Positions 15,442-60,308 are shown, counted from the first letter of the stretch. The stretch is 64,000 nt of DNA from an uncultured Acidobacteriota bacterium (GCA_963725325.1 CAVRYF010000001.1:171723-235722); one strand, 5' to 3'. Notes: generated by a model from the letters alone, not told the origin. Made by a program: numbers and translations.

Positions 15442-15509
15442 CCGCTCGCAAGTCGCTGATTCTAAAGTGGCCCAGAACTCCCACGCTTTGTGCGTCCGTA
15501 AACCTCGAT
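15442..15509 (+). repeat. Junction scar related to the tRNA-Ser upstream region (no tRNA part)
   Basis: ccgctcgcaagtcgctgattctaaagtgg resembles ccgcaagtgcttgattctaaacgg, found upstream of the tRNA-Ser copies. The downstream ccgtaaacctcgat also occurs at ~22770. Confidence 0.35.
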
Positions 15510-15514
15510 GTTCC

Positions 15515-16105
15515 TCAGTCAGCAGGACATCGCTGCCAGGCATCAAGGGACTCGAGGAATTGCCTTGCCTCGACCGCGGAGTTCTCGGCGATGTACGCGA
15601 GCAGCAATGTCCGATGTGGGCAGAGCCGCTTCTCAACGTACCAATTGAGGGGAAACTGGACATCGTCTTTTCGCACCAGGCCCGAGCGCACCGCCGACTG
15701 CAACTGACTGACCTCGAACAGAAAGCGGTCATACCGGTCAGTGATGAATCGCTGTGTTTCCGTGCGCTTGCGCCCGTTTTTTCGTAAGGATGCTTCAATC
15801 GCCACAGGGACATCTGTTGGTAGGATGCGCACGACCGTGCCAGGCGCGATCTCGTACGTGCGGCCTTCCTCCCAGTCCAGCATCGTCATCGCCTGCCAGC
15901 CGTCGTCTTTGATCATGGCGTTGACCATCGTTCGGGCCATGTCGGCCTGCTTCCACTCGAGCTCCCGCATGCTCTGCGAGACCCCTCGCCGGTATTGACC
16001 GATACCCACCGCCGCGGCGACAAGGGCGCTGAGGATCGCTGCGTACTTCCCAATCCATTCCAGCCTGGTCGCGTTAGGCACGGCGTCTCTCTCCAGTAGT
16101 TCCAA
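15515..16105 (-). CDS. Hypothetical membrane-anchored protein (orphan)
   Basis: 196-aa ORF with one N-terminal TM segment (YAAILSALVAAAVGIGQY). Amino-acid composition is balanced, and GC is lower than in the neighbours. I recognise no family. Confidence 0.5.
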   Translation of the reverse strand: MELLERDAVPNATRLEWIGKYAAILSALVAAAVGIGQYRRGVSQSMRELEWKQADMARTMVNAMIKDDGWQAMTMLDWEEGRTYEIAPGTVVRILPTDVPVAIEASLRKNGRKRTETQRFITDRYDRFLFEVSQLQSAVRSGLVRKDDVQFPLNWYVEKRLCPHRTLLLAYIAENSAVEARQFLESLDAWQRCPAD

Positions 16106-16130
16106 GTCCTCGAGACTTCACAGCCGTGCG

Positions 16131-17060
16131 TCAGAACTTGAGCGTCCAGCCACTCTGAACCTGACTCGAGGAGGCGCGCTGGCCGTTCCTGTTGACACGC
16201 GTACCGGCCAGGTAATCGACGACGATATCCACGAACGGGACCCGATTCCACATCAGACTAATCGATGTCCATTGGGTCCGGTAGGGCGTTTCGCTGTCAA
16301 GCACGCCTCTTACCGACCTCCGCCCGACGCGGTGAGTGCCTGAAGCGTGAAGATGTCCGGCGCCAGTGTGACGCCGACTTCGACGCGCTCGACCTCGTAG
16401 ATCGTGCGTCCGATCTGATCGTTGGACTCGACGTAGCGGTGGGGCACGCGCATCCCGCCGACGTCGCGATAGTCCGAGTACGTCGTCGTCGCCGGCATCG
16501 CACCGGCTTCGGCAACCGACATCGTCCGCCGATCCTGAAGCACGTCGCCGGTCTCCGCGTCCACGGCCACCATCAGCCGCGGTCCCTGCCAGGTGCGCAC
16601 GAACCACCCCATCCCGTAGCCGACGGTGCCGCCGACTTGGATCTGCGGCGTCCAGGTCGTCGTCAGGGCGGCGGGACTGATTAGCGGTTTTGCCGTCGTA
16701 GACGCCCTGGCGCAGCAGGAAGCGAATCCACGAGGTCATGTCGAGGGTCGTGGCGCTGATCGCGCCTGCGGGTGCGATGCCGTCGATGTTGTTCCCGCGT
16801 CTCGAGCGTGACCAGCTGGAATCTCTTCCGCGCCTCGTCCCACGTGTAGCCTCGAGCCACGCGTGGATCCTTCCACGCTTTCAGCAGCGACGTGCGCGTC
16901 GCGGCCATGCCGAGCGGAGCGAGGATGCGCGCCTTCATGAGCGTGTCCCAGGACGTGCCGGCCGCCGCGGCCGCCGCCGATCCCGCCGCGAGGTAGAGCA
17001 CGTTGTTGTAGAGGAACCGCTGACAAAACGGAGCAAACCAGCCTCAACCGCGCGGCGCTG
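16131..17060 (-). pseudogene. Beta-lactamase-family serine hydrolase remnant: 5'-truncated, several frameshifts
   Basis: Fragments lie in three frames:
- GWFAPFCQRFLYNNVLYLAAGSAAAAAAGTSWDTLMKARILAPLGMAATR...
- GAISATTLDMTSWIRFLLRQGVYDGKT
- GYGMGWFVRTWQGPRLMVAVDAETGDVL...
A stop lies directly upstream of GWFAPF and the SxxK region is absent. The last ~55 codons (...FVDIVVDYLAGTRVNRNG...SGWTLKF*) look like an unrelated OM-barrel C-terminus. Confidence 0.55.
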
Positions 17061-17228
17061 TACCGTGCGCATCGCGAGGTCGGCCGCAGTGAATGTCGCG
17101 TTCGTTCCGGGCGCGGTTGGCGCGGTCATAGTGGCGAATCCTGTTCCGAATCGGGCGTGGCGACCCGGATCGCGAGACGAATCCGACGTCCGAGGTGCAC
17201 GGTCGACATCGGACCCGCTCGCGTCCTT

Positions 17229-18737
17229 CTACGACTTTGGCATCAGTTTCTCGACGATCTGGTCAACCGTGAAGCTCGCGGCCTTCTGTCGCGGCGGGAA
17301 CTCTTTGAAACTCTCGAGCCATTCGTGCACGACCGCCTGCGCGGCGTACTGGAACGGGACATGCTCGACGAACCAGTCGTTGTATCTGATGCTGTCCTCG
17401 CCCGCCTCGAACGGATCCGATCGCAGATCGAACATCTTGGGGATGCGCATCTGCTTCAGCGGCTCGCGCCAGACCTGAAGTCCCGTGGCGAGCTGCTCGG
17501 CGAACACGATCTTGTACTGCTGCACCCGCAGCGCCATCAGGTCCCCATCGTCGCTCCAGTAAATGAAGCCGTCGCGCGGGCATGGCTCCTTGCCGGAAAG
17601 GAACGGGAACAGGTTGTAGCCATCGAGATGCACCTTGAAGCTCGTTCCGCCGATCTCGTGTCCTTTCTTGAGCTTGGCCACGATGTCCGGATCCCCGGCG
17701 GCGGCCGCAAAGGTCGGCAGGAAGTCGGTGAGCGAACCCATCTCGTTGATGACCTCGCCGCCTTTGATGACGCCAGGCCACCGCATCACGCACGGGACGC
17801 GCCAGCCGCCCTCCCAATTCGTATCCTTCTCACCGCGGAAGGGCGTCGCGCCGCCGTCGGGCCAGATGCATTCCTCGGCGCCGTTGTCGGTGGTGAACAC
17901 TACGACCGTGTTGTCGGCGACGCCGAGATCGTCGAGCTTCTTCAGCAGGTCACCGACATAGCCGTCGAGTTCGACCATCCCGTCCGGGTAGATGCCGTGC
18001 CCGGTCTTGCCCACCGAGGACGGCTTCAGATGCGTGAACACGTGCATGCGCGTGGGATTGAAATAGCAGAACCACGGCACCTTCTCTTTGGTCTTGCGCT
18101 CCATGAAGTCGAGGGCCGACGCCAGGAACTCTTCGTCTACCGTCTCCATGCGTTTCTTGGTGAGCGGGCCGGTGTTTTCAATCGTTTGCTTGCCAACCTT
18201 CCCAAACACCGGATCCTCGGTCGCATCGTCCTTGTCGGTGGCCTTGCACTTGAGGACACCGCGCGGTCCGAATCGAGCCTTGAACTTGGGGTCCTTGGGA
18301 TAGTCGGTGTACTCGGGCTCTTCCTCGGCGTTCAGGTGATAGAGGTTCCCGAAGAACTCATCGAAGCCATGCACCGTCGGCAGATGCTCGTTGCGATCGC
18401 CGAGATGGTTCTTGCCGAACTGGCCGGTCGCATAACCAAAGCCCTTGAGCACCTGCGCGATGGTTACGTCTTCCGCCTTGAGCCCGAGGGTCGCGCCAGG
18501 CATGCCGACCTTGGTCAGGCCTGTGCGGATCGGCTGCTGGCCCGTGAGGAACGCCGCACGGCCAGCGGTGCAGCTTTGCTGGCCGTAGAAGTCGGTGAAC
18601 ATCGCGCCCTCGCGGGCGATCCGGTCCATGTTCGGCGTGCGATAGCCCATGAGGCCGTGGTTGTAGCAACTCAGATTGAACCAGCCGATGTCGTCGGCCA
18701 TGATGAAGAGAATGTTCGGCTTGCCGGTCTTTGCCAT
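17229..18737 (-). CDS. Arylsulfatase (formylglycine-dependent sulfatase family)
   Basis: GGAGGA then ATG 18737: MAKTGKPNILFIMADDIGW...QQSCTAGRAAFLTG (C-x-A-x-R FGly motif). No signal peptide is evident. Confidence 0.9.
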   Translation of the reverse strand: MAKTGKPNILFIMADDIGWFNLSCYNHGLMGYRTPNMDRIAREGAMFTDFYGQQSCTAGRAAFLTGQQPIRTGLTKVGMPGATLGLKAEDVTIAQVLKGFGYATGQFGKNHLGDRNEHLPTVHGFDEFFGNLYHLNAEEEPEYTDYPKDPKFKARFGPRGVLKCKATDKDDATEDPVFGKVGKQTIENTGPLTKKRMETVDEEFLASALDFMERKTKEKVPWFCYFNPTRMHVFTHLKPSSVGKTGHGIYPDGMVELDGYVGDLLKKLDDLGVADNTVVVFTTDNGAEECIWPDGGATPFRGEKDTNWEGGWRVPCVMRWPGVIKGGEVINEMGSLTDFLPTFAAAAGDPDIVAKLKKGHEIGGTSFKVHLDGYNLFPFLSGKEPCPRDGFIYWSDDGDLMALRVQQYKIVFAEQLATGLQVWREPLKQMRIPKMFDLRSDPFEAGEDSIRYNDWFVEHVPFQYAAQAVVHEWLESFKEFPPRQKAASFTVDQIVEKLMPKS

Positions 18738-18816
18738 GTGAGTCCTCCTGACGCGTATCGACATCTGCGCTGTATCCGATTCCGATCCCATGCGTTGCCT
18801 GACGCGAGCGATCGAC

Positions 18817-19149
18817 TTACGCCAAGACGACCTTCCAGTCGTTCTTCATGCTGACCACGGTCCACCCGTGCGCCTTCGCGAGATCGAGCGCCTTCTCGGC
18901 GCCCGCGACGTAGTCGAATTCGCGCGTGCTGTCGTCGTGGAGCACGAGCAACCGAAGCGCCGGGCGGTCCTTGCCTCCGGTGAACTGCAGCATCTCGATA
19001 TCGCCATTGGAGTTGCCGACTGCCAGGATCGGCCGCCGTCCAATCCGGCTCCAGATGCGGACGGGTTTCACGGGACCGTCGTCGAACACATCCGGCTTCG
19101 CGAGGTACGCGAGCGATCCCCCGTCAGGGCCGACCGGACCAAAACACAC
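18817..19149 (-). pseudogene. C-terminal fragment of a HAD-superfamily hydrolase (paralog of 23053..24003)
   Basis: IGRRPILAVGNSNGDIEMLQF...LVLHDDSTREFDYVAGAEKALDLAKAHGWTVVSMKNDWKVV aligns with the last ~100 aa of the full-length HAD gene at 23 kb. The DxDxT N-terminus is missing. Confidence 0.6.
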
Positions 19150-19562
19150 CTCCGTTCCAACATGCCGTGCCAGGCCACGGCATGTCGTGGGCTGCAGCCG
19201 CCCGCCTCGCGGGATCCGCAGGGATTCCCGTCAAAATCGGTGATCCTTGTCGGCTGCCGCTCCATTGAGCAGACACTGTACCTGCTTGGTGCGGCGGCGC
19301 GCTCCGTGCCTAGTTGAGCCCGACGACACGTAGTCTGACCAGAGTCTCTGGGAGAAGGTCCAAGCTGCTATGCGCATTCGGCAATGCGGAGGTGGACTGT
19401 CAGGCCAGCGGCGGACTAAGCGGTCTTACACAATTTCATCGACGAGCGATCTGGACAGGCCCGCAAGTCGCTGAATACAAACGGCATCGCGGGACGTTAG
19501 TATTTGAAGGAGGGTTTTGCGATAGCCTGTTCCAGGCCGCCCGCAAACCGTTGATTCTAAAC

Positions 19563-19601
19563 GGAGAGATGTCCGAGTGGTTGAAGGAGCACGCTTGGAA
19601 A
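19563..19601 (+). repeat. tRNA-Ser(GGA) 5'-half copy 1 (acceptor, D-arm, anticodon stem 5' side and loop), ends exactly after the anticodon loop
   Basis: ggagagatgtccgagtggttgaaggagcacgcttggaaa is followed by unrelated ttgattcc. It is preceded by ~130 nt similar to the sequence upstream of copies 2 and 3 and the real tRNA (…ttgaaggagggttttgcg…ccgcaaaccgttgattctaaac). Confidence 0.75.
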
Positions 19602-19844
19602 TTGATTCCTTTCGCGCGTGCTGACGCATTCCAAATCCCCCCAACGCATCCGATCAACGACTTCCCGCAACATCGATGTGCATCGGAGTGTCCCGTAAAT
19701 CGCGGTGTGTGACCGGGGTTTCAGGGGTATGTGACACAGTTCTGACACAAAACCGCTCGCAATTGCGGCGCACGACTCGGTGTGCCCTGGTACGCGTGGC
19801 GCGCATGGTCCAATCAGGCCGCTCATTTCGTATATACTAAATTA

Positions 19845-20129
19845 GTGTTCGAGTGGGACCCGCGGAAGGCTGAGGCCAACGCGGCGAAGCACGGCGTCTC
19901 CTTCGATGATGCCGTGACCGTCTTCCTGGATCCCGAGGCGCTCGATGGCCCAGACTTGCAGCACTCGTCGGCGGAGTCGCGGTTCCTGCGACTTGGTCGA
20001 TCTCGTAGCGGACGCGTGCTGATGGTCGCGTACACATTCAGGAGAAGTGGCGATGCGGAAGCGATCCGGATCATCAGCGCGCGGCGGGCGAGCCGCCGCG
20101 AGCGTGCGGCGTACGCGGCGACAGGTTGA
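19845..20129 (+). CDS. brnT: BrnT-family (DUF497) type II toxin
   Basis: VFEWDPRKAEANAAKHGVSFDDAVTVFLDP...IRIISARRASRRER. The likely start is GTG 19845, just after an AT-rich tatatactaaatta. The ORF track starts at 19782. Confidence 0.8.
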   Translation: MFEWDPRKAEANAAKHGVSFDDAVTVFLDPEALDGPDLQHSSAESRFLRLGRSRSGRVLMVAYTFRRSGDAEAIRIISARRASRRERAAYAATG

Positions 20130-20346
20130 TTTCTCCGACATTCCCGATTCATCGGTACACCAGCTGCAGGCAATGCGGCGCGTCGGCCGGCCTCCGCTCG
20201 GCGACGAGCCTCGTCAGCTGATCGCGATTCGCGTCGATCCGGAAGTGCTCGAGCAGTTCCGTAAGGAAGCCCGCCGCCGCCGTGTCGGGTACCAGACGCT
20301 CATGAACGAAGTGCTCGCCCGGCACGTGCGCAAGGATGTCGCGTAA
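20104..20346 (+). CDS. brnA: BrnA-family antitoxin (RHH/CopG-like)
   Basis: DFSDIPDSSVHQL...GRPPLGDEPRQLIAIRVDPEVLEQFRKEARRRRVGYQTLMNEVLARHV. The gene overlaps the brnT 3' end. The start is uncertain: GTG 20104 here, versus 20047 in the ORF track. Confidence 0.8.
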   Translation: MRRTRRQVDFSDIPDSSVHQLQAMRRVGRPPLGDEPRQLIAIRVDPEVLEQFRKEARRRRVGYQTLMNEVLARHVRKDVA

Positions 20347-20437
20347 CGCGCCCAGCCGCGAGCAGCACCTTGAGATCGGGAGTGGCGCGGTTGATTCACC
20401 GGTGGATGTGCTGGCGAGTAATCGCGCGAGGTCCGCG

Positions 20438-21009
20438 ATGAGCAGGAGCAGTCGACGCGCGTTTCTGGCGGGCGCCGTCGCCCTTGCGGCGACACCACAT
20501 GGAATCGTTGCTGCTGAGCCGGCGCGTACCCGACTCATCCTGCTTGGGACGGGTGGCGGGCCATTGAGGGCCTCGTCATGTCCGACGAGAACGTCAAGGT
20601 CACGGCCGCATTCGTGGATCACCCGCCGGTTATGCCCGCTTTCGGCTATCGATTCGATGCGCACGACCGGTCAATCGTAATCTCTGGGGACACCGCACCC
20701 TCTGACAACGTCGTCAAGCTCGCGCGCGGCGCCGACGTGCTTGTCCACTCGGTGATGTATCCGCCGGCCATCGATCGCCTGGTCGGCCGAGTACCCAATG
20801 CTTCGTCACTGAAGGAGAGCATCCTTGCCCACCAGACGTCAGCGGAGGACGCGGGACGGATCGCCGAAGCCGCTGGCGTTCATACCCTCGTACTCTCTCA
20901 CCTCGTGCCCGCTGACGATCCAGAGATCAGCGAGCGGATGTGGATCGACGCAGCGAAGTTGCACTTCAGCGGCAAAGTGATCCTGGGCCGAGATCTGTTG
21001 GAAGTCTGA
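20438..21009 (+). pseudogene. MBL-fold metallo-hydrolase with internal deletion (HxHxDH region missing)
   Basis: MSRSSRRAFLAGAVALAATPHGIVAAEPARTRLILLGTGGGP (Tat-like signal + first strand) switches frame directly to ...DENVKVTAAFVDHPPVMPAFGYRFDAHDRSIVISGDTAP...LVLSHLVP, the C-terminal half of the fold. Confidence 0.6.
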
Positions 21010-21059
21010 CCCGATGCAGGGTCGAGCGAAGCCCGCTGGCAAAGTGTCTGGAGGTCTGC

Positions 21060-21629
21060 ATGGTCAAGGTGGGTTTCGGACGTCGCGCGTTCGTGGAGGC
21101 GGCTGTGGCATTTCCGTTCCGAGGAGTCGCTCTATCAGCCCAGACGTCGAGGCCGCCCCTGGTCAAGGTGGCCGCCGGATCTGGGAAAGCGAATGACATC
21201 ATCACGCTGCCAGGCGGCGACCGCGTCCATGTCAAGGTCTCGACTGAGGACAGCGGTGGCGCGCTCTTTATGACCGAGCAGCCGATCGAGCGCCGCGGAT
21301 CGGGTCCACCCAAGCACTACCACGAAGAGCAGGACGAGTGGTTCTATTGCCTCGCCGGAGAATACGTCGTCGAAATCGGCGAGCAGCGGTTTCGGCTGGG
21401 TCCAGGCGATTCGGTCCTTGGGCCTCGACGGGTTCCACACGCGTTTGTCTATGACGGTGCGGGGCTGGGACGAATCCTCATCGGATTCACGCCCGCGGCA
21501 CGCATCGAGCAGTTCTTTCGTGATCTCGAGAAGCGGGGCGAGTACTTCGGCAATGGCTCGCCGGAGGACAAGGAACGGGTCCACCGGTTATATGGCATCG
21601 TGAATGTTGGGCCTCCGCTGAGACTGTGA
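21060..21629 (+). CDS. Cupin-domain protein, secreted
   Basis: GGAGG then ATG 21060. Contains GGALFMTEQPIERRGSGPPKHYHEEQDEWFYCLAGEYVVEIGEQRFRLGPGDSVLGPRRVPHAF (cupin motifs). Confidence 0.75.
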   Translation: MVKVGFGRRAFVEAAVAFPFRGVALSAQTSRPPLVKVAAGSGKANDIITLPGGDRVHVKVSTEDSGGALFMTEQPIERRGSGPPKHYHEEQDEWFYCLAGEYVVEIGEQRFRLGPGDSVLGPRRVPHAFVYDGAGLGRILIGFTPAARIEQFFRDLEKRGEYFGNGSPEDKERVHRLYGIVNVGPPLRL

Positions 21630-21653
21630 CCGACCTCGGCGGTTTTTGTCGGG

Positions 21654-22304
21654 CTACTTGCACGGCATCAATTTCGGCTCAGCCTCGCCTTCCATCCTCG
21701 TCGTCGGAGGCTGTGAGGCGTCGTAGACGATCACCGCCAACGCTCGTCGCGGCGTGGGTCCCGTCGCCACAAGTCGCATCGCGACGCCGGAGGGAACCAC
21801 GAGCGTGTCCCCTTTGTTCATCACATAGGTCCGGTCAGACGTTTCAAGACACTGCTGCCCATCGGCAACGAAGAAACCTTCAACGCCCGAGTGGTGATGA
21901 AACCGCGATGTCAATCCGGATGGAATGTACGCCGACATGGCGAGCATCGCGTACCTCTCCGCCGCCGGCAGCGCGGGCAGCGCCGCCGCGGCGACGTGCT
22001 GACCACCGTGGTGATCCGTCGCGGTGGGCTCGATCGTCATGAGCCACGCGACACCGTGCGCCGCGAACGCTATGCTGGTCGGACCGACCGCAGCCTTTGC
22101 CGCGGCCTCGGTTCTGAATTGATCGAGGTGCCAAACCAATGGCGCCTTGAGACCAGGAGGGAGCGCCTTGTTTTCAACAAGGCTGCACCCGATCTCTCCT
22201 CGACGTTCGGGCGAGTTTTCGACACAGCTCGGCTCCAATTGCGCCCACGCCATCCGCGCTGAACACATCAGCGCCAGGGCCACACTCAGAGTCGCGGTTC
22301 TCAT
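21654..22304 (-). CDS. Cupin-domain protein, secreted
   Basis: ATG 22304: MRTATLSVALALMCSARMAWAQ (signal peptide); ...SRFHHHSGVEGFFVADGQQCLETSDRTYVMNKGDTLVVPSGVAMRL. The upstream part of ORF 21654..22460 belongs to a repeat scar. Confidence 0.7.
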   Translation of the reverse strand: MRTATLSVALALMCSARMAWAQLEPSCVENSPERRGEIGCSLVENKALPPGLKAPLVWHLDQFRTEAAAKAAVGPTSIAFAAHGVAWLMTIEPTATDHHGGQHVAAAALPALPAAERYAMLAMSAYIPSGLTSRFHHHSGVEGFFVADGQQCLETSDRTYVMNKGDTLVVPSGVAMRLVATGPTPRRALAVIVYDASQPPTTRMEGEAEPKLMPCK

Positions 22305-22562
22305 CGGAACTCCAGACTGACGGGCTGCGCTCGCCCGACAGAAGGTCGATGTCACGATACACCTGACAAAGGCGATAGACCGCTCAACGAAATCGCCGTA
22401 AGTGATCGCAGCACATGAAGATGTCTGACACAGTTCCAGAAAACGCCCGTAGTCGCACACGCCAAACCGCTGAACGCAGACAAGATGCAGAACCGGTTAG
22501 GAATTCGTCGGCGTATGCGATAAGCGTATCAGGTTCGCCCGCAAATCATTGATTCTAAAAGC

Positions 22563-22677
22563 GGAGAGATGTCCGAGTGGTTGTCCTCCTCCGCGGCAGA
22601 CGCCGCTTCGGCGGGACATCTCGCCGTAGGTCGCGCTGAACTCACGCGCGAGGCGGATGAAGGAGCACGCTTGGAAA
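22563..22677 (+). repeat. tRNA-Ser(GGA) 5'-half copy 2, interrupted in the D-loop by a ~75-nt insertion
   Basis: The sequence runs ggagagatgtccgagtggttg, then insertion 22584..22658, then gaaggagcacgcttggaaa, followed by unrelated ttgctctg. Apart from the insertion it is identical to copy 1. Confidence 0.7.
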
Positions 22678-22810
22678 TTGCTCTGACGGTCTGCGATGGC
22701 GTGCTACAGATTTCGATTACTGTTGCGAAGCCAACCACTTAACCGCGATCGCGTCTACTCCATCGGTCGCCGTAAACCTCGATAGATCTCACTCGATCGA
22801 CAGCGTCACG

Positions 22811-23056
22811 TCACAGTTGCGTCACAGTCCGCGCGGCGTTGAATGAGCCGTCCGGCACGTCACGCATGCCAAACCCGGTGGCGGGAATGCGGTCGGCCTC
22901 CGTCCTGATCGCTGGCGCGTAGTCGGTGTCGGGACGCGTCGACTCGGTTGGAGTCGGAGCCGCGGGCTTCGCGACCAGCGGTTGCTGACCTTGCGCACTG
23001 ACGCCGCAACACCACGCGAGCGCTAGGGTGAGGCCGATCACTCGAGCCGTGATCAT
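22811..23056 (-). CDS. Small secreted hypothetical protein
   Basis: ATG 23056 overlaps the HAD stop (ATGA). Sequence: MITARVIGLTLALAWCCGVSAQG (signal peptide), then a Pro/Thr-rich stretch. The 3' end (…RTVTQL*) lies in the acacagtt repeat motif, so the C-terminus may be fortuitous. Confidence 0.4.
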   Translation of the reverse strand: MITARVIGLTLALAWCCGVSAQGQQPLVAKPAAPTPTESTRPDTDYAPAIRTEADRIPATGFGMRDVPDGSFNAARTVTQL

Positions 23057-27150: not shown

Positions 27151-28006
27151 CGTCTTGTTCTCCTTCGGATGCCTACGTTGAAAGCAGGGTTATCGCCTCA
27201 TCCCCATACCGTCCCTGCCGAAGCAGGCCGGCTGTGAGACACATAGGCGTGTCGATGTGGGTAAAGGTCGCGGTCCGTTAGGCCTAATGAGTGGAAATGG
27301 GGTTCGGGACCGAATGTCGCAGTACCCTTCGCAACAAACGGCCATTGAAGGGTTGCAAGGGCAGATAAGTATCTCACTAGCGGCGCGCACAATTGCTGGG
27401 CAATATGCCGCGGTGTCTCCGCGATCACTGCTCCCGTTGGTTCGGCGGAAGGATTGGGGAATATCTCGCGCTACGCCGGAAATACCCCAAGGTGGCAAAT
27501 TCCTCGACGTGTTCAAACGTGCGCCGCGCCCTCGACGCGAAATGCACGAAGCTGGCGAAGTGGGCACGCGAGGGGACGGACCTCGATCTTGATAATCGAA
27601 GCCGACGACATTCAACACTCGAACGTTTTCGTCGTCTACGAGGCCGTTGCGCGGGCGCTACCTGAGCGGAGTGATCAACCGGATATCGTTGTGTTGGTCG
27701 AGACCGACGGACACCCATGGAGCGGCTGGATTCTCAAGGAGCGCGATCGTCTCGGAGATGACGTGCCTCCGAACCGTGATGGCGGACATCTCTACGAGCG
27801 CGGCCGCGTCCGCTGAAGGGCACCCGCCGTCCAAGCCGCGGCGGCTATACTTGAAGCGGGTCGCCGACCGCACCTGTGGTCGTCCCGTGCGGGCTGGCCG
27901 GCATCGGCCGCGCCCGTAAGTGATCGCGGCACATTAGGAGGTCTGACACAATTGAGATCTGCCATGGGCAACGAGCGTTCGGCCCAGACGGCGACGACTA
28001 ATCGAA

Positions 28007-28321
28007 CTATCGGTTCAACGGTGTGCCGGCCGAACGCGCTTCTTGCTGATACAGATATTTCTGGAAGCCGATGAAGACTCGTCCAATGTCCTCAGGCTTG
28101 CCCAGGTGAGCCACCGCGTCGGCAATTGAGTTGTTGTATTTCAACCGCAACAATGGGGTCAGTTTCTCTTGGTCGAGTTCCTGCACGCCAACACGGACGT
28201 AGTGAGAGAGCACGAAGTCGAGAAAGGCTTGCTCTTTGCTCTCAAACGCCGCGCGGATCGCAACCTTGGCTCTCGCCGCGCGTTCCTCTCGGGTAAAGTC
28301 GTGTCTGCTGTAAGTGTTCAT
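28007..28321 (-). CDS. Stand-alone protein equal to the C-terminal domain of type I restriction enzyme R subunits (EcoEI_R_C-like)
   Basis: ATG 28321: MNTYSRHDFTREERAARAKV...FLDFVLSHYVRVGVQELDQEKLTPLLRLKYNNSIADAVAHLGKPEDIGRVFIGFQKYLY. This is only the tail of track ORF 28007..29368; the rest of that ORF is antisense to the permease. Confidence 0.65.
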   Translation of the reverse strand: MNTYSRHDFTREERAARAKVAIRAAFESKEQAFLDFVLSHYVRVGVQELDQEKLTPLLRLKYNNSIADAVAHLGKPEDIGRVFIGFQKYLYQQEARSAGTPLNR

Positions 28322-28353
28322 AGGAAACGAACGGCAGAAAACTACCGGCGTGG

Positions 28354-30855
28354 CTATTCGCTGCGGAGCGCTACGTTGGGATCGACCGCCGCGGCCCTGC
28401 GGGCCGGCAAGTAGCAGGCAAAGAACGCGGCACAGATCAACGGAATCGGCGTCACCACCAGCATCCACGGATCGACGATGGCGACGTCCAGCTCGAGATA
28501 CGCGCGCGCGATCGCCCGGCCGACGAGGCCAATCGACAACCCGAAGATGAGCCCGTCGAGGACAGGACGATAGCCGTCCACGAGCACCATGCGCTTGATC
28601 TGTCCGGCGGTGGCCCCCAACGACATCCGCACGCCGATCTCCCGCGTGCGGTTTGCAATGATATGCGACTGGATGCCGTAGAGGCCCGCCATGGCGAGAA
28701 GCAGCGTGATCGCGCCGAGGCCGACCGCCGTCATGCCGAGCCCGCGCAGGACCTGAGACGGTCCGGCGAGCACCGATCGTCCCGTCCCGATGGTGTCGAC
28801 CGCCACGTCCGGATCGGCACGCCGGATGGCCTCGCGCATCGCGCCCACCGCATTGGTCACCGATCCGGATGCCCGCGCGACGACCGTGATGAGCGGCTGG
28901 TAGTGCTGCGTCAGCGGCACGTAGGCCAGTGGCCGCGGATCCGCGAAGATACTGCCCACGTCCGTATCGGCGGCAACGCCGACGATCGTGGCCGTCGGGG
29001 ACCGCGTCTGGCCGACCGCCATCTCCCGCCCGACGACGTCGGCGGTACCGAACATCTGCCGTGCCGTGAATTCGCTCAGGACCACGACGCGTGGCGCGGC
29101 CGGCCCGTCGCGATCGTCGAAAGCGCGTCCACGCAGGATCTCCACCCCCAGCGTTCGGAACATCGAGGGGGCCCCGGCGATCGTCGTCACCACCTGCGGG
29201 TCCATTCGCGCGCCGCTCGTCTGTTCCAGTGGTGAGATGGACAGACGCAGCGTACTCGGCACGCCGAAGGGCAATCCACTCGACAGTGAGGCCGCCTCGA
29301 CCGACGGATGGCGCCGCAGCTCGTCGAGTACCCGGTCGAAGATGCGCCGTGCGCGAGGCTCGTTCCACTCCGGCGTGTCGAAATTGAGAACGGCGACGCC
29401 GATTCGATCCAGGTCGATGCCGGAATCATGGCGCGCCTCCGCGATCGAGTACTTCATGAACATGGTGGCGATGATGAAGAACCCGGCCGCGATGGCGACC
29501 TGCCACCGCAGGAGAAGCCGCTGGCGCCGGCCGCGCTGCGGTCCGGCGGCCGATCCGCCGGCGAGCGCGCCGCGAACGTCGAGCGTGCGCGTCAGCTGAA
29601 TCGCCGGCTCGAGGCCGAAGACGACGAGCGCGATGAGGAGCGACGAGACCGCGATCGTCAGCGCCGGCACGTTCAGCGCGGGATGAAACGACAGCGTGGT
29701 ACGGCCGCCGAAAGGCATGGCGAGGCTGAACTCGGTGTCCATCACGACGCGCAACAGCTCGAACATGACGTAGGACGCGAATGCGCCGCCGGCCGCCAGC
29801 ATCACGCTCTCGAGACACTGTTCGCGCACGAGCCGCCACCTCGATGCGCCGAGGGCGCGCCGCACGGCGAGCTCGCGCAGCCGTGTACTTCCGCGGGCGA
29901 GCACGAGGTTGCCGAGGTTCGTGCAGGCGACGACCAGCACCAACCCGACGAGCGCCACGAGCGTCATCCCGAACCGGCGCACGGCGGAGTCCTCGTCGTC
30001 GGAGATCGCCGCCATGGTCTTTGCGCGCCACGGGCGATCCGTGGCGCCGACGCCCTTGCCACGGAATCGCGGCGGAAAAAACTCGTCGAGCCGCTCGGCG
30101 ATGGTCTGCATTTCCGCCGATGCCGCGGCGATCGTCACCTCCGTTGCGAGGCGGCCAAAGACGGTGAGCCGTCGATCGTCTCGTGCTGTGGCGCGCGGCG
30201 CCGCCGTCCGGGGGGACTCCTTCAACCGTGACTCGGTACCGAGTGGAATCCAGAACTGCGTGCCCACCAGCCATCCGCGAGGACCGCTGAACGAGGCCGG
30301 CGCCACGCCGATAATCTCGAAGGGTTCTCCGGAGATCGCCACGGTGGCGCCGACGATCCGCGGATCGGACGCGAACCGCCGTCGCCACAGCGTATCGCTC
30401 AGCATCACCACACGTCCGCCGCCGGCATCGTCGCTCGGCTGAATCGTGCGTCCGAGCTTGGCGCCCACGCCGAGCGTGGCGAAGTACGATCCGCTCACCG
30501 ACTCGCCGATGACCATCTCCGTCACGGACGGCAGGGCAAGGCGGCGAACGAACGTGGCGGACGCGGCGACGTGGGAGAACGACGTCTGGGCGGTCTGCAC
30601 ATCGCGGAAGTCCGGCTCCGACACCGTGCCGGTCAGCAGCCGTCCGCTGTACGGGGTGACGATGACGGCGACGCGATCGGGCTCGTGGATGCCGAGGCCG
30701 CGCAGGAACACCGCATCGACGATCGAATACACGGCTGTCGTGATCGCGACGCCGACCGCGAGCGAGAGAATCGCGAAGGTTGTGAAGAGAGGCGTCGCGC
30801 CGAGCCGCCTGAGCGCGAGCCTGATGTCGCGGCCCACGGCTGTAGAGGGTAGCAC
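28354..30855 (-). CDS. ADOP-family duplicated MacB/FtsX-type ABC transporter permease
   Basis: 833 aa. Contains DIRLALRRLGATPLFTTFAILSLAVGVAITTAVYSIVDAVFLRGLG and two MacB_PCD + FtsX halves. This architecture is typical of the acidobacterial duplicated orphan permeases. Confidence 0.85.
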   Translation of the reverse strand: MLPSTAVGRDIRLALRRLGATPLFTTFAILSLAVGVAITTAVYSIVDAVFLRGLGIHEPDRVAVIVTPYSGRLLTGTVSEPDFRDVQTAQTSFSHVAASATFVRRLALPSVTEMVIGESVSGSYFATLGVGAKLGRTIQPSDDAGGGRVVMLSDTLWRRRFASDPRIVGATVAISGEPFEIIGVAPASFSGPRGWLVGTQFWIPLGTESRLKESPRTAAPRATARDDRRLTVFGRLATEVTIAAASAEMQTIAERLDEFFPPRFRGKGVGATDRPWRAKTMAAISDDEDSAVRRFGMTLVALVGLVLVVACTNLGNLVLARGSTRLRELAVRRALGASRWRLVREQCLESVMLAAGGAFASYVMFELLRVVMDTEFSLAMPFGGRTTLSFHPALNVPALTIAVSSLLIALVVFGLEPAIQLTRTLDVRGALAGGSAAGPQRGRRQRLLLRWQVAIAAGFFIIATMFMKYSIAEARHDSGIDLDRIGVAVLNFDTPEWNEPRARRIFDRVLDELRRHPSVEAASLSSGLPFGVPSTLRLSISPLEQTSGARMDPQVVTTIAGAPSMFRTLGVEILRGRAFDDRDGPAAPRVVVLSEFTARQMFGTADVVGREMAVGQTRSPTATIVGVAADTDVGSIFADPRPLAYVPLTQHYQPLITVVARASGSVTNAVGAMREAIRRADPDVAVDTIGTGRSVLAGPSQVLRGLGMTAVGLGAITLLLAMAGLYGIQSHIIANRTREIGVRMSLGATAGQIKRMVLVDGYRPVLDGLIFGLSIGLVGRAIARAYLELDVAIVDPWMLVVTPIPLICAAFFACYLPARRAAAVDPNVALRSE

Positions 30856-30861
30856 GCCCGG

Positions 30862-31377: not shown

Positions 31378-31524
31378 AACCGGGTCTTACACGATTCGCG
31401 CGATCAACTGTTGATGTGTGTCTTGTAAGCTGCTGATTCCAAGCCTGATGGAAGAACGCTGGGAATTGAAGGAGGGTTTTGCGTGACACTGTTCCTGGCC
31501 GTCCGCAAGTGCTTGATTCTAAAC

Positions 31525-55253: not shown

Positions 55254-55308
55254 CGGGACACCAGATCACGCGAACGGTTGATCGCGGTGCTGGTCGAGAC
55301 GTCGACGT

Positions 55309-56800
55309 TCATCGGTCTTGAGGCACTGTTGTGGCTGGCGGACTTGAGCCGTCGGGCTCGTTTGCCTCTTCGTTGCGCGCGGCGCGGCCGAATTGGTGGA
55401 CCCGTTCGGTCAGACTGCCTTTGCGGATGCGCACGGATTCACGGGTGACGTCGCCGATCGCGCCGCCAAGCTCCACGTCGAGCCCAGCCGATTTCGAGAG
55501 GCCAATCTTCTGACTGGCGTAGACGCTGCGGTGCCCGACCATCAGGAAGGCTGTTGAGGCCGCCAACGCCGCATACACACCCTCAGGACCGGGCAACAGT
55601 TCCATGGCCATCACGGCGGCGGCGATTGGCGTGTTCGCAGCAGCGGCGAGCATCGCCACGAGCCCCACGGCACCCAGGAACGTGGTCGGCATGCCGAACA
55701 CGGGCGCCAACGCAGCACCACTGGTGGCGCCCACGAAGAAAATCGGCGTCACGATGCCGCCGCTGCCGCCTGTTTCGAGCGTGATCGAGGTCGCCAGGAT
55801 CTTGAGCAGAAAAGCGCCGGCGAACACGGGCGTCGTCCCCGCCAGCACACCGTTGATCGTGTCAGTCCCGAGACCGGCATAGGCGTCACCGGCCGCCATA
55901 TACAAGAGCACCAAGGCCACGCCGCCCGCGGCCGACAGCAGGTACGGCCGGCGTTCGAAGCGACGCAGTGCGCGCTCGAAGAAACGGAGCGACTCGATGA
56001 GCAGCAACGCGATCAGGCCGAACAGCGCTCCACACACCAGCATGATCAGGATGGTTTTCACCTGGCGCGTATCGGCGAAGGGCTGTCTGCAACGACGGAA
56101 ACGGAGGCCGCACGCCGCAGACGAGATGCGCGACGATGCCGGCCACCAGCGCGGGAAAGATCACCGTGTAATCGATCCGTCCGAGATAGAGCACTTCGAT
56201 CCCGAAGAGCGCTCCGGAGACAGGCGTGCCGAACACCGCCGCGAAACCGGCGCTGATCCCGCAAATCACCAGCCGCCGCCGGTCCTCGTCGCGAAGGCGC
56301 AGGATGTCGGCGAACAGACTCGTCAGGGCGGCGCCAATCTGCGCGGCCGGCCCCTCCTTGCCGACGGAGCCGCCAAACGCCAGCGTTACAACTGTTGCGC
56401 TCAGCTTCACGGGCGCGACGAGCCAATCGACGCGACCGGCCCGCTGGTGCACGGCGGCGATGACCGCCTCCGTGCCGTGGCCGCGCGCATCGGCGGCGAA
56501 CGTGCGAATGATCCAGACGCAGATCGGAAGCGCGACCGGCAGAAAGATGAAGACGGGAACGCGACCGGGCGTGAGCGCACGCGCCCAGTCAGCTGAGCGG
56601 GCGAGAGCCCAGAGAAACACGCGCGTGCCAAGACCGACGCAGATGCCTGCCGCCGCACCGAGCATCGCCCATTTGAGCGTGCTGATGAGCAGCGCCGTAT
56701 GCTCGGTGTACCAGCGAGTCTCGTCGGCGAGACGAGGAGACTCGTCGCGGGAGACCAAGCCGCGGAGCCGAGCCAATCGTTGTCGAAAGGTAGAGGACAT
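55309..56800 (-). CDS. ClC-family voltage-gated chloride channel, frameshift near 56060-56100
   Basis: ATG 56800: MSSTFRQRL...GGSVGKEGPAAQIGAAL...GTPVSGALFGIEV. The sequence continues in ORF 55309..56061 (…TGGSGGIVTPIFFVGATSG…AAVMAMEL). Confidence 0.8.
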
Positions 56801-57020
56801 CCGCTTCGTTAAGCCTATCCGAAGAGCCTCGGAGCAGGCGAAACGACGACGCCGGGGTGGTGCAGACCAAACTCCCGAGCGAGCTTCACGCGCTCGAGGA
56901 ACCACTGCTTTGGGTGGGGACGCGAGGTCATCCCTCACCAGTAGCAGGTTGACAGCGGTCCACGCGACGTGTAACTGTTTTGTTACGCATTTCAACGCGG
57001 GACCGCTCAAAGGAGGGCGC

Positions 57021-57509
57021 ATGACCAACGTTCCAGGCATTCTTGTCGTACGGAGATCCATTCACATTGCAGCATCGCCCGATCAGGTATGGAACGAGTT
57101 CGCCAGCTTCGAGCGGATGACGCAATGGTGGGGCGTGGTGATCGGCGCACCACGTGCGGGCACTCCTAACGGTCAGCGACTCCTGACGTACGAGCCGCGG
57201 CTGGGCGGCCGAATCGAAATGGAGGTGGAGCTGAATGGGTCGCCACTCCGGTACGGAGGAACGATCGTGACGCTGGACCCAGGGCGAGAACTGACCTTTG
57301 AGTGTGACTGGATTCCGAATCGGGGGTGGTTGCTGCCAACGCTTCTCACGATCCGGCTGACGCCCGCGTTGAGCGGCACTCTTGTCGAGTTGCTCCACCA
57401 CGGTTTTGAGCGAACTGGGGTCAGCGGCGCCGCCGACCATGCAGGGTACGAGGGCGGTTGGGGAATGACGCAATTGATGGCTCTGCGAGAGCTGGTGAAG
57501 GCGGCGTGA
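57021..57509 (+). CDS. SRPBCC (AHSA1/START-like) family protein
   Basis: AGGAGG then ATG 57021: MTNVPGILVVRRSIHIAASPDQVWNEFASFERMTQWW. Only the last third of track ORF 56226..57509 is genuine. Confidence 0.7.
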   Translation: MTNVPGILVVRRSIHIAASPDQVWNEFASFERMTQWWGVVIGAPRAGTPNGQRLLTYEPRLGGRIEMEVELNGSPLRYGGTIVTLDPGRELTFECDWIPNRGWLLPTLLTIRLTPALSGTLVELLHHGFERTGVSGAADHAGYEGGWGMTQLMALRELVKAA

Positions 57510-58917: not shown

Positions 58918-58943
58918 CGTCCGCCTCCTTGTCCTGTCCAAAC

Positions 58944-58970
58944 GGAGAGATGGCCGAGTGGAGCCCGGCG
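58944..58970 (+). repeat. Short tRNA-Ser 5' fragment (acceptor + D-arm only)
   Basis: ggagagatggccgagtggagcccggcg lies ~115 nt upstream of the intact tRNA, preceded by ccaaac (compare tctaaac in the other copies). Confidence 0.45.
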
Positions 58971-59083
58971 TTCATGACGGTATACTTGTTCGTGCGAACG
59001 TGAGAGCGTCACTTTTCGAGGACTTATCACAATCGCCAAGAATCGTGGGTTGCGCGTGACCGTAAGTCGTTGATTTTACAGAC

Positions 59084-59173
59084 GGAGAGATGCTGGAGTG
59101 GTCGATCAGGCACGCTTGGAAAGCGTGTGTAGGGGAAACTCTACCGAGGGTTCGAATCCCTCTCTCTCCGCCA
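59084..59173 (+). tRNA. tRNA-Ser (anticodon GGA), class II with long variable arm, CCA encoded
   Basis: - Acceptor stem: GGAGAGA/TCTCTCC.
- D-stem: CTG(G)/(T)CAG.
- Anticodon stem CACGC/GCGTG with loop TTGGAAA.
- Variable arm: tgtaggggaaactctaccg.
- T-arm: GAGGG-TTCGAAT-CCCTC.
- Discriminator G, then CCA. Confidence 0.95.
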
Positions 59174-59184
59174 ACTAACCTGTT

Positions 59185-60308
59185 CTACACAGACGAGTTC
59201 GCGGTTTCGGTCGCCTCCGTTGCCACAATGTTGCCACGGCTCGCGAGAATGCTCGGGGTCTCCAGCAGTCGAATCGCGCTGTCGACCGCCGCTGGAGTCA
59301 AGTGCATGTATCGCTGCGTCGTCGTGGAGATCGGCATGCCCCGCCAACTCCTGAATCGCGCGCGCAGGCGCCCCGCGCATCGCCAGGTGCGAACAGAACG
59401 TGTGACGGAGCATGTGCGGCCCGTTGTTCTGCAGTCCGGCCCGCTGCGCAGCCCGCCGAACCAAGCCCTGAACCAGCCCTTCGGTCAACGGGAGTCCATC
59501 TTCCTGATAAAGCACTCGTGGCCCACGAAGATGTCGATGTTCCCGAAGGGCGCCGGCGAGTCGTGCGGTCAATCGTACGTATCGTAACCGTCCGCCTTTC
59601 GTTGACGCGATCTGTCCCTTCCACGCCGACCGTTGAACACACACGTGTCGCTTGTTGAAGTCGATGTCGCTCCATTCAAGCGCCACCATCTCGCCGAGCC
59701 GCAGCCCTGCTTCGCCCGCAAGCAGGACGAGGATCTACGCGCGTGGGTCGGTTTGCGCGCCGCCGCCACAAGCCGCTCGAACTCGTCGAAGTCGTAGAAC
59801 CGGATCGAACCCTTCGACACCGGCAGGACTTTGACTGTGCACGGCAGCCGTTCGATCACATCCCACTCCACGGCTTTCTTGAGCATCACGCTCAGCACGG
59901 TCAGGACGTTGTTGACGGTCTTCGGCGCCTTGTTCAGCAATCGATGTTTCAATCGCTGCACGTCCTCGTTCGTGATCGCGTCGAGCGCGCTTGCGCCAAG
60001 CGCAGGCACGAGATGCACTCGGACGATCATCTCTTTCGCCGCGATCCCGCTCGGCTTCTGACGATTCGCCCTCGCATGTCCCTCGATGAATCTCGACGCG
60101 AACTGTTCCAACGTGGGCACCTCCTTCTTGGGTTGGGGTGGACCGTGCTGCAGTAAGTGCCGCTCACGGTCCTGGCCCCATCGTTGAGCCGCCGACTTCG
60201 AGGCGATGGACAACCGCCGCCGCTCTCGATGTCGCGCCCCGTTCGACAGCCGGGTGTTGATGTCCACCATCCAGCCGCCTTGCGATACGGTCTGACTGTC
60301 ACGCTCAT
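59185..60308 (-). pseudogene. Tyrosine recombinase (phage-type integrase), multiply disrupted
   Basis: The pieces lie in three frames:
- MSVTVRPYRKAAGW | MVDINTRLSNG...EWDVIERLP...ERLVAAARK
- TDPRA-TAG-ILVLLAGEAGLRLGEMVALEWSDIDF...HMLRHTFCSHLAMRGAPARAIQELAGHADL
- STTTQRYMHLTPAAVDSAIRLL...SSV*
There are at least 3 frameshifts and 1 in-frame TAG. The stop lies 12 nt after the tRNA. Confidence 0.8.

Follow-up and report, generated by a model that had tools for sequence, protein, structure and literature searches.

The tRNA-Ser(GGA) gene of an uncultured Acidobacteriota bacterium very probably anchors an accretion array, built by site-specifically inserting elements that each carry a tRNA 5' half. 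The window (the whole 64,000-nt stretch of DNA that we analysed) holds several displaced 5' halves of this tRNA, each within an attP-like unit of ~400 nt with arm-type repeats on both flanks. Comparison with other genomes and with metagenomes establishes the anatomy of the array, its arm-site classes, a complete element, an insertion polymorphism and the recent spread of one cassette across species. An earlier sequence-only reading had proposed that the region was built by successive integrations; the complete element, the occupied and empty loci, the spread of the cassette and the placement of the halves all support that model.

Anatomy of the array

The array runs from a decayed ATCAC junction through segments A, B (GACAC class) and C1 (GTCAC class), a cassette named here after its MacB-type permease, and segment D (TACAC class) to the intact tRNA. 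Its features are as follows.

15439-15516, + strand: decayed junction unit that joins the final 29 nt of a right end to part of an ATCAC-class left end
15517-19562: segment A, with its right end at 19413-19562 (+ strand; right-end profile E = 2e-38)
19563-19601, + strand: displaced 5' half, copy 1 (nt 1-39), D-stem UCC/GGA
19602-22562: segment B; cargo BrnT/BrnA, an MBL-fold fragment and two cupins
19602-19780, + strand: segment B left end, GACAC class (left_GACAC profile E = 8e-45)
22382-22562, + strand: segment B right end (right-end profile E = 4e-32)
22563-22677, + strand: displaced 5' half, copy 2, D-stem UCC/GGA, broken by a 76-nt insertion (22584-22659)
22678-22851, + strand: segment C1 left end, GTCAC class (left_GTCAC profile E = 6e-55)
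27913-27953, + strand: right-end remnant with arm motif GTCTGACACAATT (right-end profile E = 8e-12)
27952-31524, + strand: truncated MacB cassette, left end lost, right end 31379-31524, its half extending to 31563
31525-31563, + strand: displaced 5' half, copy 3, D-stem UCG/CGA, belonging to the MacB cassette
31564-31733, + strand: segment D left end, TACAC class (left_TACAC profile E = 1e-42)
31734-58943, no strand assigned: segment D body, with regulators, ECF sigma factors, MsrPQ, OYE, AhpC and OsmC
58944-58970, + strand: 27-nt fragment of a GCC/GGC-type 5' half, ending after nt 27
59058-59083, + strand: tRNA-proximal conserved block CCGTAAGTCGTTGATTTTACAGAC, the sole part of a right end recognisable before the intact tRNA
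59084-59173, + strand: intact tRNA-Ser(GGA) (ARAGORN, Rfam), the sole intact copy found
59188-60270, - strand: int1, a tyrosine integrase pseudogene with at least two frameshifts, in the classical 3'-side placement

The three 39-nt copies (nt 1-39) first read upstream of the intact tRNA, on its own strand, are all present. As also claimed, they stop together at ...CTTGGAAA, the last base of the anticodon loop, and beyond this shared end (...CACGCTTGGAAA) they diverge from the very next base. The insertion in copy 2 sits in the D-loop and is private to this strain lineage. The earlier reading of the D-stems was correct: the intact tRNA has CUG/CAG, copy 3 has UCG/CGA, and copies 1 and 2 share UCC/GGA. 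When any of the halves is fused to the 3' half of the resident gene, ARAGORN calls a valid tRNA-Ser(GGA) (for copy 2 only without its 76-nt insertion), in line with the suggestion that every half once belonged to a functional tRNA; and since the D-stem variants are compensated, the halves derive from different functional tRNA genes. The 27-nt fragment had been taken for a possible GCC/GGC type, and indeed 22 of its 27 positions match such a half found elsewhere, GGAGAGATGGCCGAGTGGTTGAAGGCG, with five D-loop bases differing when counted by eye; its break follows nt 27 instead of the anticodon loop. No second 3' half of tRNA-Ser(GGA) occurs elsewhere in the window, which excludes an intron-split or permuted tRNA.

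Related sequence upstream of every copy had been reported too. For copies 1 to 3 the homology is strong (E = 2e-38, 4e-32 and 2e-30, using nhmmer with a profile from other genomes), but the fragment has none and the intact tRNA only ~30 nt. Homology also extends ~175 nt rightward of each break, which had been overlooked; across both sides of each window break it spans ~345 nt. Of two supposed upstream-only scars, the one at 15442-15509 is real and profile matches refine it to 15439-15516. Its right-end part (15439-15467; nhmmer E = 3.5e-6) is the promoter-proximal block and is collinear with the left-end part (15468-15516; E = 1.3e-6), which corresponds to ATCAC positions 67-115, an internal deletion of ~105 nt having taken the tRNA half and ~66 nt of the left end. 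The other, near 35678, finds no support: only the 11-mer GTTGATTCTAA matches there, with no profile match at E < 1. Also missed was the right-end remnant at 27913-27953, an 88% repeat of 22396-22435 with its boundary at 27952, where a deletion removed the rest of the unit together with ~1,109 nt from the start of the cassette that follows. Two boundaries in the window are eroded by deletions.

In the right end of segment A, the arm motif GGTCTTACACAATT (19422-19435) is accompanied by two blocks: TTGAAGGAGGGTTTTGCG, which is conserved, and CCGCAAACCGTTGATTCTAAAC, which is tRNA-proximal. Segment B bears tandem arm repeats GACACAGTTCTGACAC in its left end (19733-19748) and the arm motif GTCTGACACAGTT in its right end (22423-22435), the latter of GACAC class like its own left end. 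In segment C1 the arm repeats are GTCACAGTTGCGTCAC (22810-22825), the cargo comprises HAD, 2'-5' RNA ligase-like and sulfatase genes, and the right end is truncated. Segment D has arm repeats TACACAGTTTCTACAC (31698-31713), and its body also carries a split CLC channel, ArsR and Zn-ADH; Pfam and profile searches found no recombinase and no internal att remnant in that body. The contig of a related strain (L002) departs from the window at 52832 and shows a left-end remnant farther along. The 27.5 kb from 31564 to 59083, with ordinary-looking genes and an atypical right end, are a single insertion only putatively. Throughout 15-59 kb, tblastn, HMM and Pfam searches found neither an integrase nor a remnant of one, so that the window segments are either non-autonomous or decayed.

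Element ends and their arm-site classes

The right end of an element consists of the 5' half (nt 1-39) and ~185 nt of upstream sequence, and the conserved left end comprises ~175-190 nt. Both ends contain arm-type repeats with the core CACA(G/A)T. The left-end repeats form a tandem pair, 11 nt apart and located at +132 to +135, which falls into four discrete classes, GACAC, GTCAC, TACAC and ATCAC; the window retains three of them intact (class assignments at E = 1e-42 to 6e-55) and a remnant of the fourth, ATCAC. On its + strand the window contains (NNCAC)N6(same NNCAC) just four times: three of these pairs lie at +132 to +135 past the breaks and one at +100 past the intact anticodon loop. Among 89 distinct left ends, 84 have a pair that repeats one and the same 5-mer, versus 25.9 expected if the two 5-mers were independent. 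Arm class agrees between the left and right ends in six of seven distinct informative cassettes (eight of nine when two cases judged by eye are added), and blocks such as CCGTAAAC are conserved across classes.

The displaced halves keep their upstream region and could still be transcribed, so one might see in the 5' half and the following ~175 nt a gene whose product is a structured or regulatory RNA derived from the tRNA. We regard this as very improbable: compared across the four classes, the left ends give 0 conserved pairs in RNAalifold, Rfam matches the tRNA alone, and the co-varying elements are direct rather than inverted repeats. Neither is the region past the break a decayed 3' half, with 14-16 identities in 51 positions (p = 0.2-0.5).

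A pattern scan of reference genomes, whose counts are lower bounds, recovered at least 121 halves broken at the identical base in at least 116 stretches, mostly from Vicinamibacterales. The upstream arm motif lies at -135 to -138 in ~30 of the 121 halves listed, as expected between tandem elements, and is absent from ~74, as expected for outermost junctions; several intact tRNAs also have an upstream arm motif of the element type. Where a locus holds both, the displaced half is always upstream of the intact tRNA and on the same strand. The units contain multiple genes and measure from 1.6 to more than 6 kb, and many att-bounded segments, segment B and the MacB cassette included, have no recombination or transfer genes. 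If the copies were scattered tRNA pseudogenes, or had arisen by segmental duplication of the region around the tRNA promoter, without any relation to mobile-element boundaries, this would account for the mere presence of repeated tRNA pieces and for nothing more, and we give that explanation practically no credence. The same break point recurs in at least 121 cases, class-specific conserved sequence flanks it on both sides, and the compensated D-stems point to different functional source genes; together with an occupied/empty pair and a complete integrase-bearing element (see below), these comparative loci contradict the pseudogene dispersal that the sequence-only reading had named as its possible refutation.

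Mobility and candidate integrases

Among the related loci, one (L205) presents a complete element of 7,046 bp: a displaced half, a GTCAC left end (E = 3e-51), cargo, the tyrosine integrase gene int2, GTCAC arm repeats and the intact tRNA, with int2 immediately upstream of the donated 5' half. L204 and L206 show the same arrangement from int2 to the tRNA. Encoded by autonomous GTCAC-class members, int2 is co-directional with the donated half, and in 120 int2 homologues the open reading frame reads through an intact tRNA-Ser in 49 and through a displaced half in 32. L076 and L098 form an occupied/empty pair: they share a flank (96.7% identity over 1.17 kb) and differ by a 4,471-bp insert exactly at the anticodon-loop edge; this presence/absence pair concerns relatives and not the window's own segments.

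Recent movement is evident for the MacB cassette, which in its full form measures 4,720 nt from break to break and encodes an EcoEI_R_C-like protein, a MacB/FtsX permease and a 135-aa ORF. It is found in seven other species at 99.2-99.7% identity with identical end points, next to at least five different left and at least four different right neighbours. In four soil metagenomes its depth is 20-60x versus ~0-3x for its neighbours in the window (10-30 times deeper), and metagenome contigs fork exactly at 31563 and 19601.

The comparative loci confirm that elements enter the tRNA gene where the anticodon loop ends on its 3' side (after 59122 in the window). Recombination is very probably site-specific, and the 7-nt loop TTGGAAA is the probable strand-exchange region. 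The 5' half of the incoming element joins the resident 3' half, a fusion that keeps the tRNA intact, and the old 5' half is left at the element's left border; repeated integrations pile elements up leftwards. The right end presumably contains the tRNA promoter, making the element its supplier; a promoter search found no sigma-70 consensus. Most units, including all those of the window, lack an integrase and behave like cassettes that their ends alone define; they may be moved in trans by int2-like or int1-like recombinases.

Alternatively, the integrase-less cassettes could be relics of old integrations that are now shuffled by DNA uptake and homologous recombination, with the conserved ends of ~180 nt and the 39-nt half common to all as the stretches of homology. 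Crossovers inside halves do occur: the MacB right end has chimeric, unpaired D-stems in L032 (UCG/UGA) and L068 (UCA/GGA), and homologous recombination within halves therefore also reshuffles these loci. Homologous exchange would likewise give apparent boundaries where homology ends. Moreover, an integrase is found for just one of the four classes, with none for GACAC, TACAC or ATCAC among the at least 116 loci listed or among int2 relatives, and the Logan contigs (four soil runs) contain no circular or tandem junction, although assembled contigs of this kind lose rare forms. Nevertheless, the arm repeats are maintained and co-vary within class (the 84 of 89 above), the two ends of a cassette agree in class, and CCGTAAAC-type blocks are kept across classes, features resembling protein sites that homologous exchange alone would not preserve across species; and the GTCAC class demonstrably has an integrase. 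We consider relics a rather unlikely explanation.

The only integrase in the window, int1, converges on the tRNA and has its stop codon 15 nt past the tRNA 3' end. Conceivably, a resident int1 could serve as an integron-like platform that captures cassettes at the anticodon loop, the array being its cassette store. In many metagenome loci, in L066 and L098 and in the window, int1 relatives with at least 70% identity do lie 15-30 nt past the 3' end of tRNA-Ser(GGA), and the int1 3' end contains a tandem GCCAC-N6-GCCAC (GCCACAATGTTGCCAC, 59222-59237), in two different reading frames, laid out like the arm pairs of cassettes. This repeat, however, would be a fifth class, unseen in cassettes among the matches listed, and int1 is missing beside the tRNA in six of eight loci with both a cassette and an intact tRNA. 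Distant relatives occupy the classical position at Ser(GCT), Leu, Asp, Ala, His and other tRNAs, a placement resembling that of ordinary 3'-side island integrases, and the window copy is a pseudogene. A platform built on int1 therefore seems improbable. Returning to cassettes moved in trans, we tentatively suggest that tRNA-Ser(GGA) in soil Vicinamibacterales may be an integron-like exchange site, at which end-defined, integrase-less cassettes with spare 5' halves, mobilised by recombinases of int2 or int1 type, move from species to species and form a common reservoir of accessory genes.

Relation to known systems and significance

In most tDNA islands it is the 3' part of the tRNA that the element carries. 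The sequence-only reading had described the present orientation as the reverse of this rule; a 5' half is indeed carried here, but such an orientation, while uncommon, is already known. Zhao & Williams 2002 (J Bacteriol 184:859) is said to report an integrative element with 'reversed target orientation', and the likeness to it that we draw extends as far as its title and citing descriptions. Like other 5'-fragment elements, those described here lie upstream of the tRNA, restore the gene with their own 5' part, leave a displaced 5' fragment at the far end in direct orientation and use a tyrosine integrase (here in L205), at a site centred on the anticodon loop, which is one known crossover sublocation. 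The block of identity between fragment and tDNA ends with the anticodon loop in all three window halves and in at least 121 elsewhere; an integrase inside the element is absent from the window segments and present in L205 (int2). Different here are the lack of an integrase in most units and the four discrete arm-site classes.

CIMEs and their tandem accretion with ICESt1/ICESt3 of Streptococcus thermophilus were reportedly described by Pavlovic et al. 2004. They are likewise integrase-less, att-bounded segments in tandem at one attachment site, presumed to depend on the integrase of a related element, as may be the case here. Unlike our units, they derive from ICEs and target the 3' end of a protein gene rather than a tRNA anticodon loop, whereas each unit here carries a tRNA 5' half and no conjugation genes are seen. 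Integrons resemble the array in their ordered, integrase-less, cargo-only units at one primary site, with the newest adjoining that site. Here, however, imperfect palindromes of attC type are lacking (0 conserved pairs, and the co-varying repeats are direct), the units are multi-gene with ends of ~185 + 39 + 175 nt, a tRNA gene serves as the site, and the candidate integrases are of ordinary Phage_integrase type, none consistently adjacent.

In Islander, 159 of 3,919 islands have a 5' tDNA fragment and just 4 arrays consist of three or more (PMC4383910), whereas arrays with ~five or more junctions do occur here. A candidate island in that resource needs an integrase gene, and a member of a tandem array needs both an integrase and a tDNA fragment (PMC4383910). 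Finders that demand an integrase for each island and expect 3' fragments will miss most of these units. Prochlorococcus tycheposons, in the accessible part of their description, share partial tRNAs and degraded elements scattered in an island, and niche-adaptive-looking cargo, but have their own integrase and replication modules, neither of which occurs in the window segments; their integrases cluster by target across seven tRNAs, and donation of a 5' half is no hallmark in that part of the text (bioRxiv 10.1101/2020.12.28.424599). We found no replication module (primase, helicase, polymerase) in the window segments or in annotated relatives. The dusA-specific integrases, according to the portion of the source consulted, also target the 5' end of a conserved gene, so that the element must replace the gene's 5' part, but their target is protein-coding and their integrase family different (PMC4482086).

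The principle of 5'-fragment tDNA islands and of tandem accretion is thus already known, while this tRNA-Ser(GGA) family and its cassette-like, integrase-less form appear to be undescribed. A rare but known style of integration is widespread, and mostly integrase-less, in soil Vicinamibacterales. Bacteria of this order abound in soil; few strains are in culture, and few of their mobile elements have been described. At loci of this type, the sequence itself marks the exact limits of horizontally moving genes, a large pool that includes permeases, sulfatases, toxin-antitoxin pairs and redox or stress genes. The candidate integrase-att pair formed by int2 and GTCAC-class sites, with a conserved anticodon loop as target, might provide a genetic tool for Acidobacteriota. 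If mobilisation in trans is true, cassette-style gene exchange would arise from ordinary tyrosine integrases and a tRNA gene.

Displaced 5' halves of tRNA-Ser(GGA) and their attP-like units

The sequence-only reading had placed three copies of the 5' half of tRNA-Ser(GGA) upstream of the intact gene and on the same strand, at 19563, 22563 and 31525, and all three were confirmed. It had also proposed that they share one break point and that their D-stems differ yet stay paired, and both points hold: the three halves stop at ...CACGCTTGGAAA, on the final base of the anticodon loop, the sequences parting at the very next position, and the D-stem keeps its pairing despite the differing sequence (CUG/CAG, UCG/CGA, UCC/GGA). 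When fused to the resident 3' half, each gives a valid tRNA-Ser(GGA) according to ARAGORN, copy 2 only without its insertion. By eye, a fragment of 27 nt at 58944-58970, broken after nt 27, agrees at 22 of 27 positions with a GCC/GGC-type half of other genomes. Apart from the intact tRNA, the window has neither a 3' half nor a T-arm copy, and therefore intron-split, permuted or split tRNA genes can be ruled out.

Features of the tRNA-Ser(GGA) array in the window
15439-15516: decayed unit, with a promoter-proximal right-end block followed by a partial left end, half deleted (E = 3.5e-6 and 1.3e-6)
19563-19601, + strand: 5' half copy 1 (first 39 nt of the tRNA), sequence repeat
22563-22677, + strand: 5' half copy 2, with a 76-nt D-loop insertion at 22584-22659
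27913-27953: right-end remnant (E = 8e-12), overlooked in the sequence-only reading
31525-31563, + strand: 5' half copy 3, sequence repeat
59084-59173, + strand: intact tRNA-Ser(GGA), the sole intact tRNA in the window
59188-60270, - strand: int1, a tyrosine integrase pseudogene with at least two frameshifts, ending 15 nt past the tRNA 3' end and converging on the tRNA
60451-61503, - strand: IS630-like (DDE_3) transposase gene, directly behind the int1 pseudogene
61574-62389, - strand: IS481-like (rve) transposase gene, also behind the int1 pseudogene

Two upstream-only scars had been suggested as well; the one at 15439-15516 is real, but the one at 35678 is unsupported in a profile search. 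Between 11396 and 15363, a stretch with a Ser/Thr kinase-RDD gene, the window matches cassette cargo of L056, a locus from another genome, at 85-87% identity; the cassette there is TACAC-class, and to judge from this similarity the array may once have started near 11.4 kb. A left boundary at ~11396, suggested by these homologous genes, was not retained, and no att remnant lies there in the window. Just left of the array is an ORF of 2,294 aa (4128-11012, - strand).

Homology among the copies spans both sides of the break, with ~150 nt upstream and ~175 nt downstream. The upstream part carries the motif GGTCT(T/G)ACAC(A/G)(A/G)TT at about -136, and the downstream part a tandem pair of 5-mers at +132 to +135 with a spacing of 11 nt (GACAC/GACAC, GTCAC/GTCAC or TACAC/TACAC). 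The conserved ends also contain the block CCGTAAAC. On their + strand the 64 kb hold (NNCAC)N6(same NNCAC) at just four places: three of these are the post-break pairs, and the fourth, GCCAC/GCCAC, is found 100 nt past the intact anticodon loop, in the 3' end of the integrase gene. By its size, its layout and the direct repeats on both arms, we presume the unit to be like the attP of a lambda-type tyrosine integrase. Other readings of the post-break region were rejected. As a decayed 3' half it shows an ungapped identity of 14-16 out of 51 nt (p = 0.2-0.5) with all four class consensus sequences, and the nhmmer extension into the T-arm is weak, with low posterior support; as a structured RNA it has 0 conserved pairs in RNAalifold, and Rfam matches only the tRNA. 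Neither a sigma-70 promoter consensus nor an intrinsic terminator was found in the units.

Probable integration at the anticodon loop

Successive integration at the anticodon loop, each element bringing its own 5' half, was the mechanism put forward in the sequence-only reading; it is supported by a complete element, by a pair of occupied and empty sites and by a cassette shared among species, and is not new in principle. The complete element, in locus L205, is 7,046 bp long. This locus starts with a displaced half whose upstream flank is unrelated; behind the half come a GTCAC-class left end (E = 3e-51) and five cargo genes, then the integrase int2, and last an intact tRNA-Ser(GGA). This int2 (Pfam Phage_integrase) is ~25% identical to int1 and has the GTCAC arm repeats in its 3' end; the same arrangement from int2 to the tRNA is seen in L204 and L206. 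The int2 ORFs (L101, L204-L206 and the homologues P0121-P0240) have no stop before the tRNA, and the called proteins continue past both the arm sites and the half into whatever sequence lies beyond; therefore the predicted C-terminal tail and the length (~390-550 aa) vary with integration state. Among 120 int2 homologues, the called ORFs run through an intact tRNA-Ser in 49 cases and through a displaced half in 32. The loci L076 and L098 have a 1.17-kb flank in common (96.7% identity), which in the empty L098 adjoins the intact tRNA and in the occupied L076 is followed by a displaced half, a 4,471-bp TACAC-class cassette and the tRNA, with the flank homology stopping at the loop edge.

The MacB permease cassette (window 27952-31563) is present at 99.2-99.7% identity in seven other species-representative genomes, where its end points are always the same and the two breaks lie 4,720 nt apart, and its neighbours across genomes are at least five different ones on the left and four on the right. 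The window copy is truncated, its first ~1,109 nt and most of the unit before it having been lost. Across four soil metagenomes, which come from different studies, the depth of this cassette is 20-60x versus ~0-3x for its window neighbours; contigs begin exactly at 27952, carrying the ~1.1 kb missing from the window, and fork exactly at 31563 and 19601. No circular or tandem junction of the cassette was seen in the assembled metagenome contigs, a weak test confined to such contigs. At its right end, the halves in L032 and L068 have chimeric, unpaired D-stems (UCG/UGA and UCA/GGA), evidence that homologous recombination, or gene conversion, acts within displaced halves as well.

We consider it highly probable that the window is an accretion array of integrative elements that donate a 5' half. 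Its segments are non-autonomous or decayed members. GC content, whose stepwise change was a check proposed in the sequence-only reading, varies little (0.62-0.66) and is not diagnostic. No recombinase or transfer genes lie between the halves, where the cargo comprises BrnT/BrnA, cupins, a HAD hydrolase, a 2'-5' RNA ligase-like protein, sulfatases, a MacB/FtsX permease, regulators, sigma factors, MsrPQ, OYE, AhpC, OsmC, a split CLC channel and a Zn-dependent dehydrogenase. The BrnT/BrnA-type toxin-antitoxin pair (~19850-20346, + strand) is the first cargo behind the GACAC-class left end of segment B. The chloride channel gene (55309-57061, - strand), with two overlapping ORFs that both match Voltage_CLC, is probably a frameshift pseudogene. 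At its left, segment D (31564-59083, 27.5 kb) clearly has an end of the TACAC class, but its right end is atypical; the sequence of a related strain departs from it partway along, and the segment may be a mosaic. It also holds a 104-nt direct repeat with 71% identity (38162-38265 and 41378-41481).

The family in other genomes and its integrases

Scanning reference genomes for 5' halves followed by a base unable to pair, we found at least 116 stretches, nearly all from Vicinamibacterales or other Acidobacteriota MAGs, with at least 121 halves having the identical break base. Four discrete classes of left end can be told apart (GACAC, GTCAC, TACAC and ATCAC), and each has a conserved post-break sequence of its own; every one of the three window copies is of a different class, and the 15439 remnant represents the fourth. 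Among the matches listed, the tandem pair follows about three quarters of the halves, and in 84 of 89 distinct left ends its two 5-mers are the same, where independence would predict 25.9. An intact tRNA-Ser(GGA) sharing a locus with a displaced half lies downstream on the same strand, 2-6 kb off. The upstream arm motif, again among the matches listed, is absent in ~74 of 121 halves, the state expected at the outer end of an array, and stands at -135 to -138 in ~30 of 121, the state expected where stacked elements meet; an element-type motif also precedes several intact tRNAs. A related strain, L001, has the same array at 98% identity, falling to 88% over 19528-20562, with 346 nt extra at 20562. 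At 51620, in the adh_short gene region, the window misses 272 nt that are present in all six related contigs (L002-L007). A phage origin was rejected, with 0 matches in a viral contig collection.

No integrase of the GACAC, TACAC or ATCAC class was found in the at least 116 loci, among int2 relatives or beside cassette ends; neither int2 relatives with such arms nor a third integrase family were found. Cargo is variable with no conserved core gene, and no conserved gene stands beside left ends or upstream of right ends. In the window int1 is the sole integrase, and no integrase remnants were found after the breaks or in the rest of it. Its family is classically placed, 15-30 nt downstream of a tRNA, with close relatives at Ser(GGA) and distant ones at Ser(GCT), Leu, Asp, Ala, His, Met, Gly and SeC, and in 6 of 8 loci with cassettes no int1 stands next to the tRNA; this makes membership of ordinary 3'-side islands likelier for int1 than the role of a resident cassette integrase. 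Within the short flanks examined, neither a far att site of int1 nor displaced 3' halves beyond it were found. We regard the chances that integrase-less units are still mobilised site-specifically in trans as about even. Just downstream of the intact gene in L013, two 22-nt copies of the tRNA-Ser(GGA) 3' end (oriented 7568-7589 and 7675-7696) look like att repeats of another element class targeting the same 3' end. In L050, a Terriglobales MAG, a different tyrosine recombinase ORF directly follows a displaced half on the same strand (oriented 6496-7364) and may represent another 5'-side element family with its integrase at the left end.

Relation to known islands

Replacement of a tRNA gene's 5' part through integration is on record but uncommon, and was reportedly described by Zhao and Williams in 2002. 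Islander holds 159 islands with a 5' fragment out of 3,919, and only 4 arrays of three or more islands (PMC4383910), and 5'-part replacement has been termed 'considerably less frequent' (PMC6563490). For tycheposons, tRNA-proximal islands are described as growing through successive integrations (bioRxiv 10.1101/2020.12.28.424599), and att-bounded segments that lack an integrase have reportedly been described as CIMEs. As 5'-part replacement, island accretion and CIMEs are all known, the window shows a known kind of process. Literature text searches returned no description of these elements, which is not proof of absence. What seems new is the int2 family with the four classes of its ends, the fact that most cassettes lack an integrase and are defined by nothing more than ~400 nt of conserved ends, a spare tRNA half included, and the abundance and recent interspecies spread of such cassettes in Vicinamibacterales.
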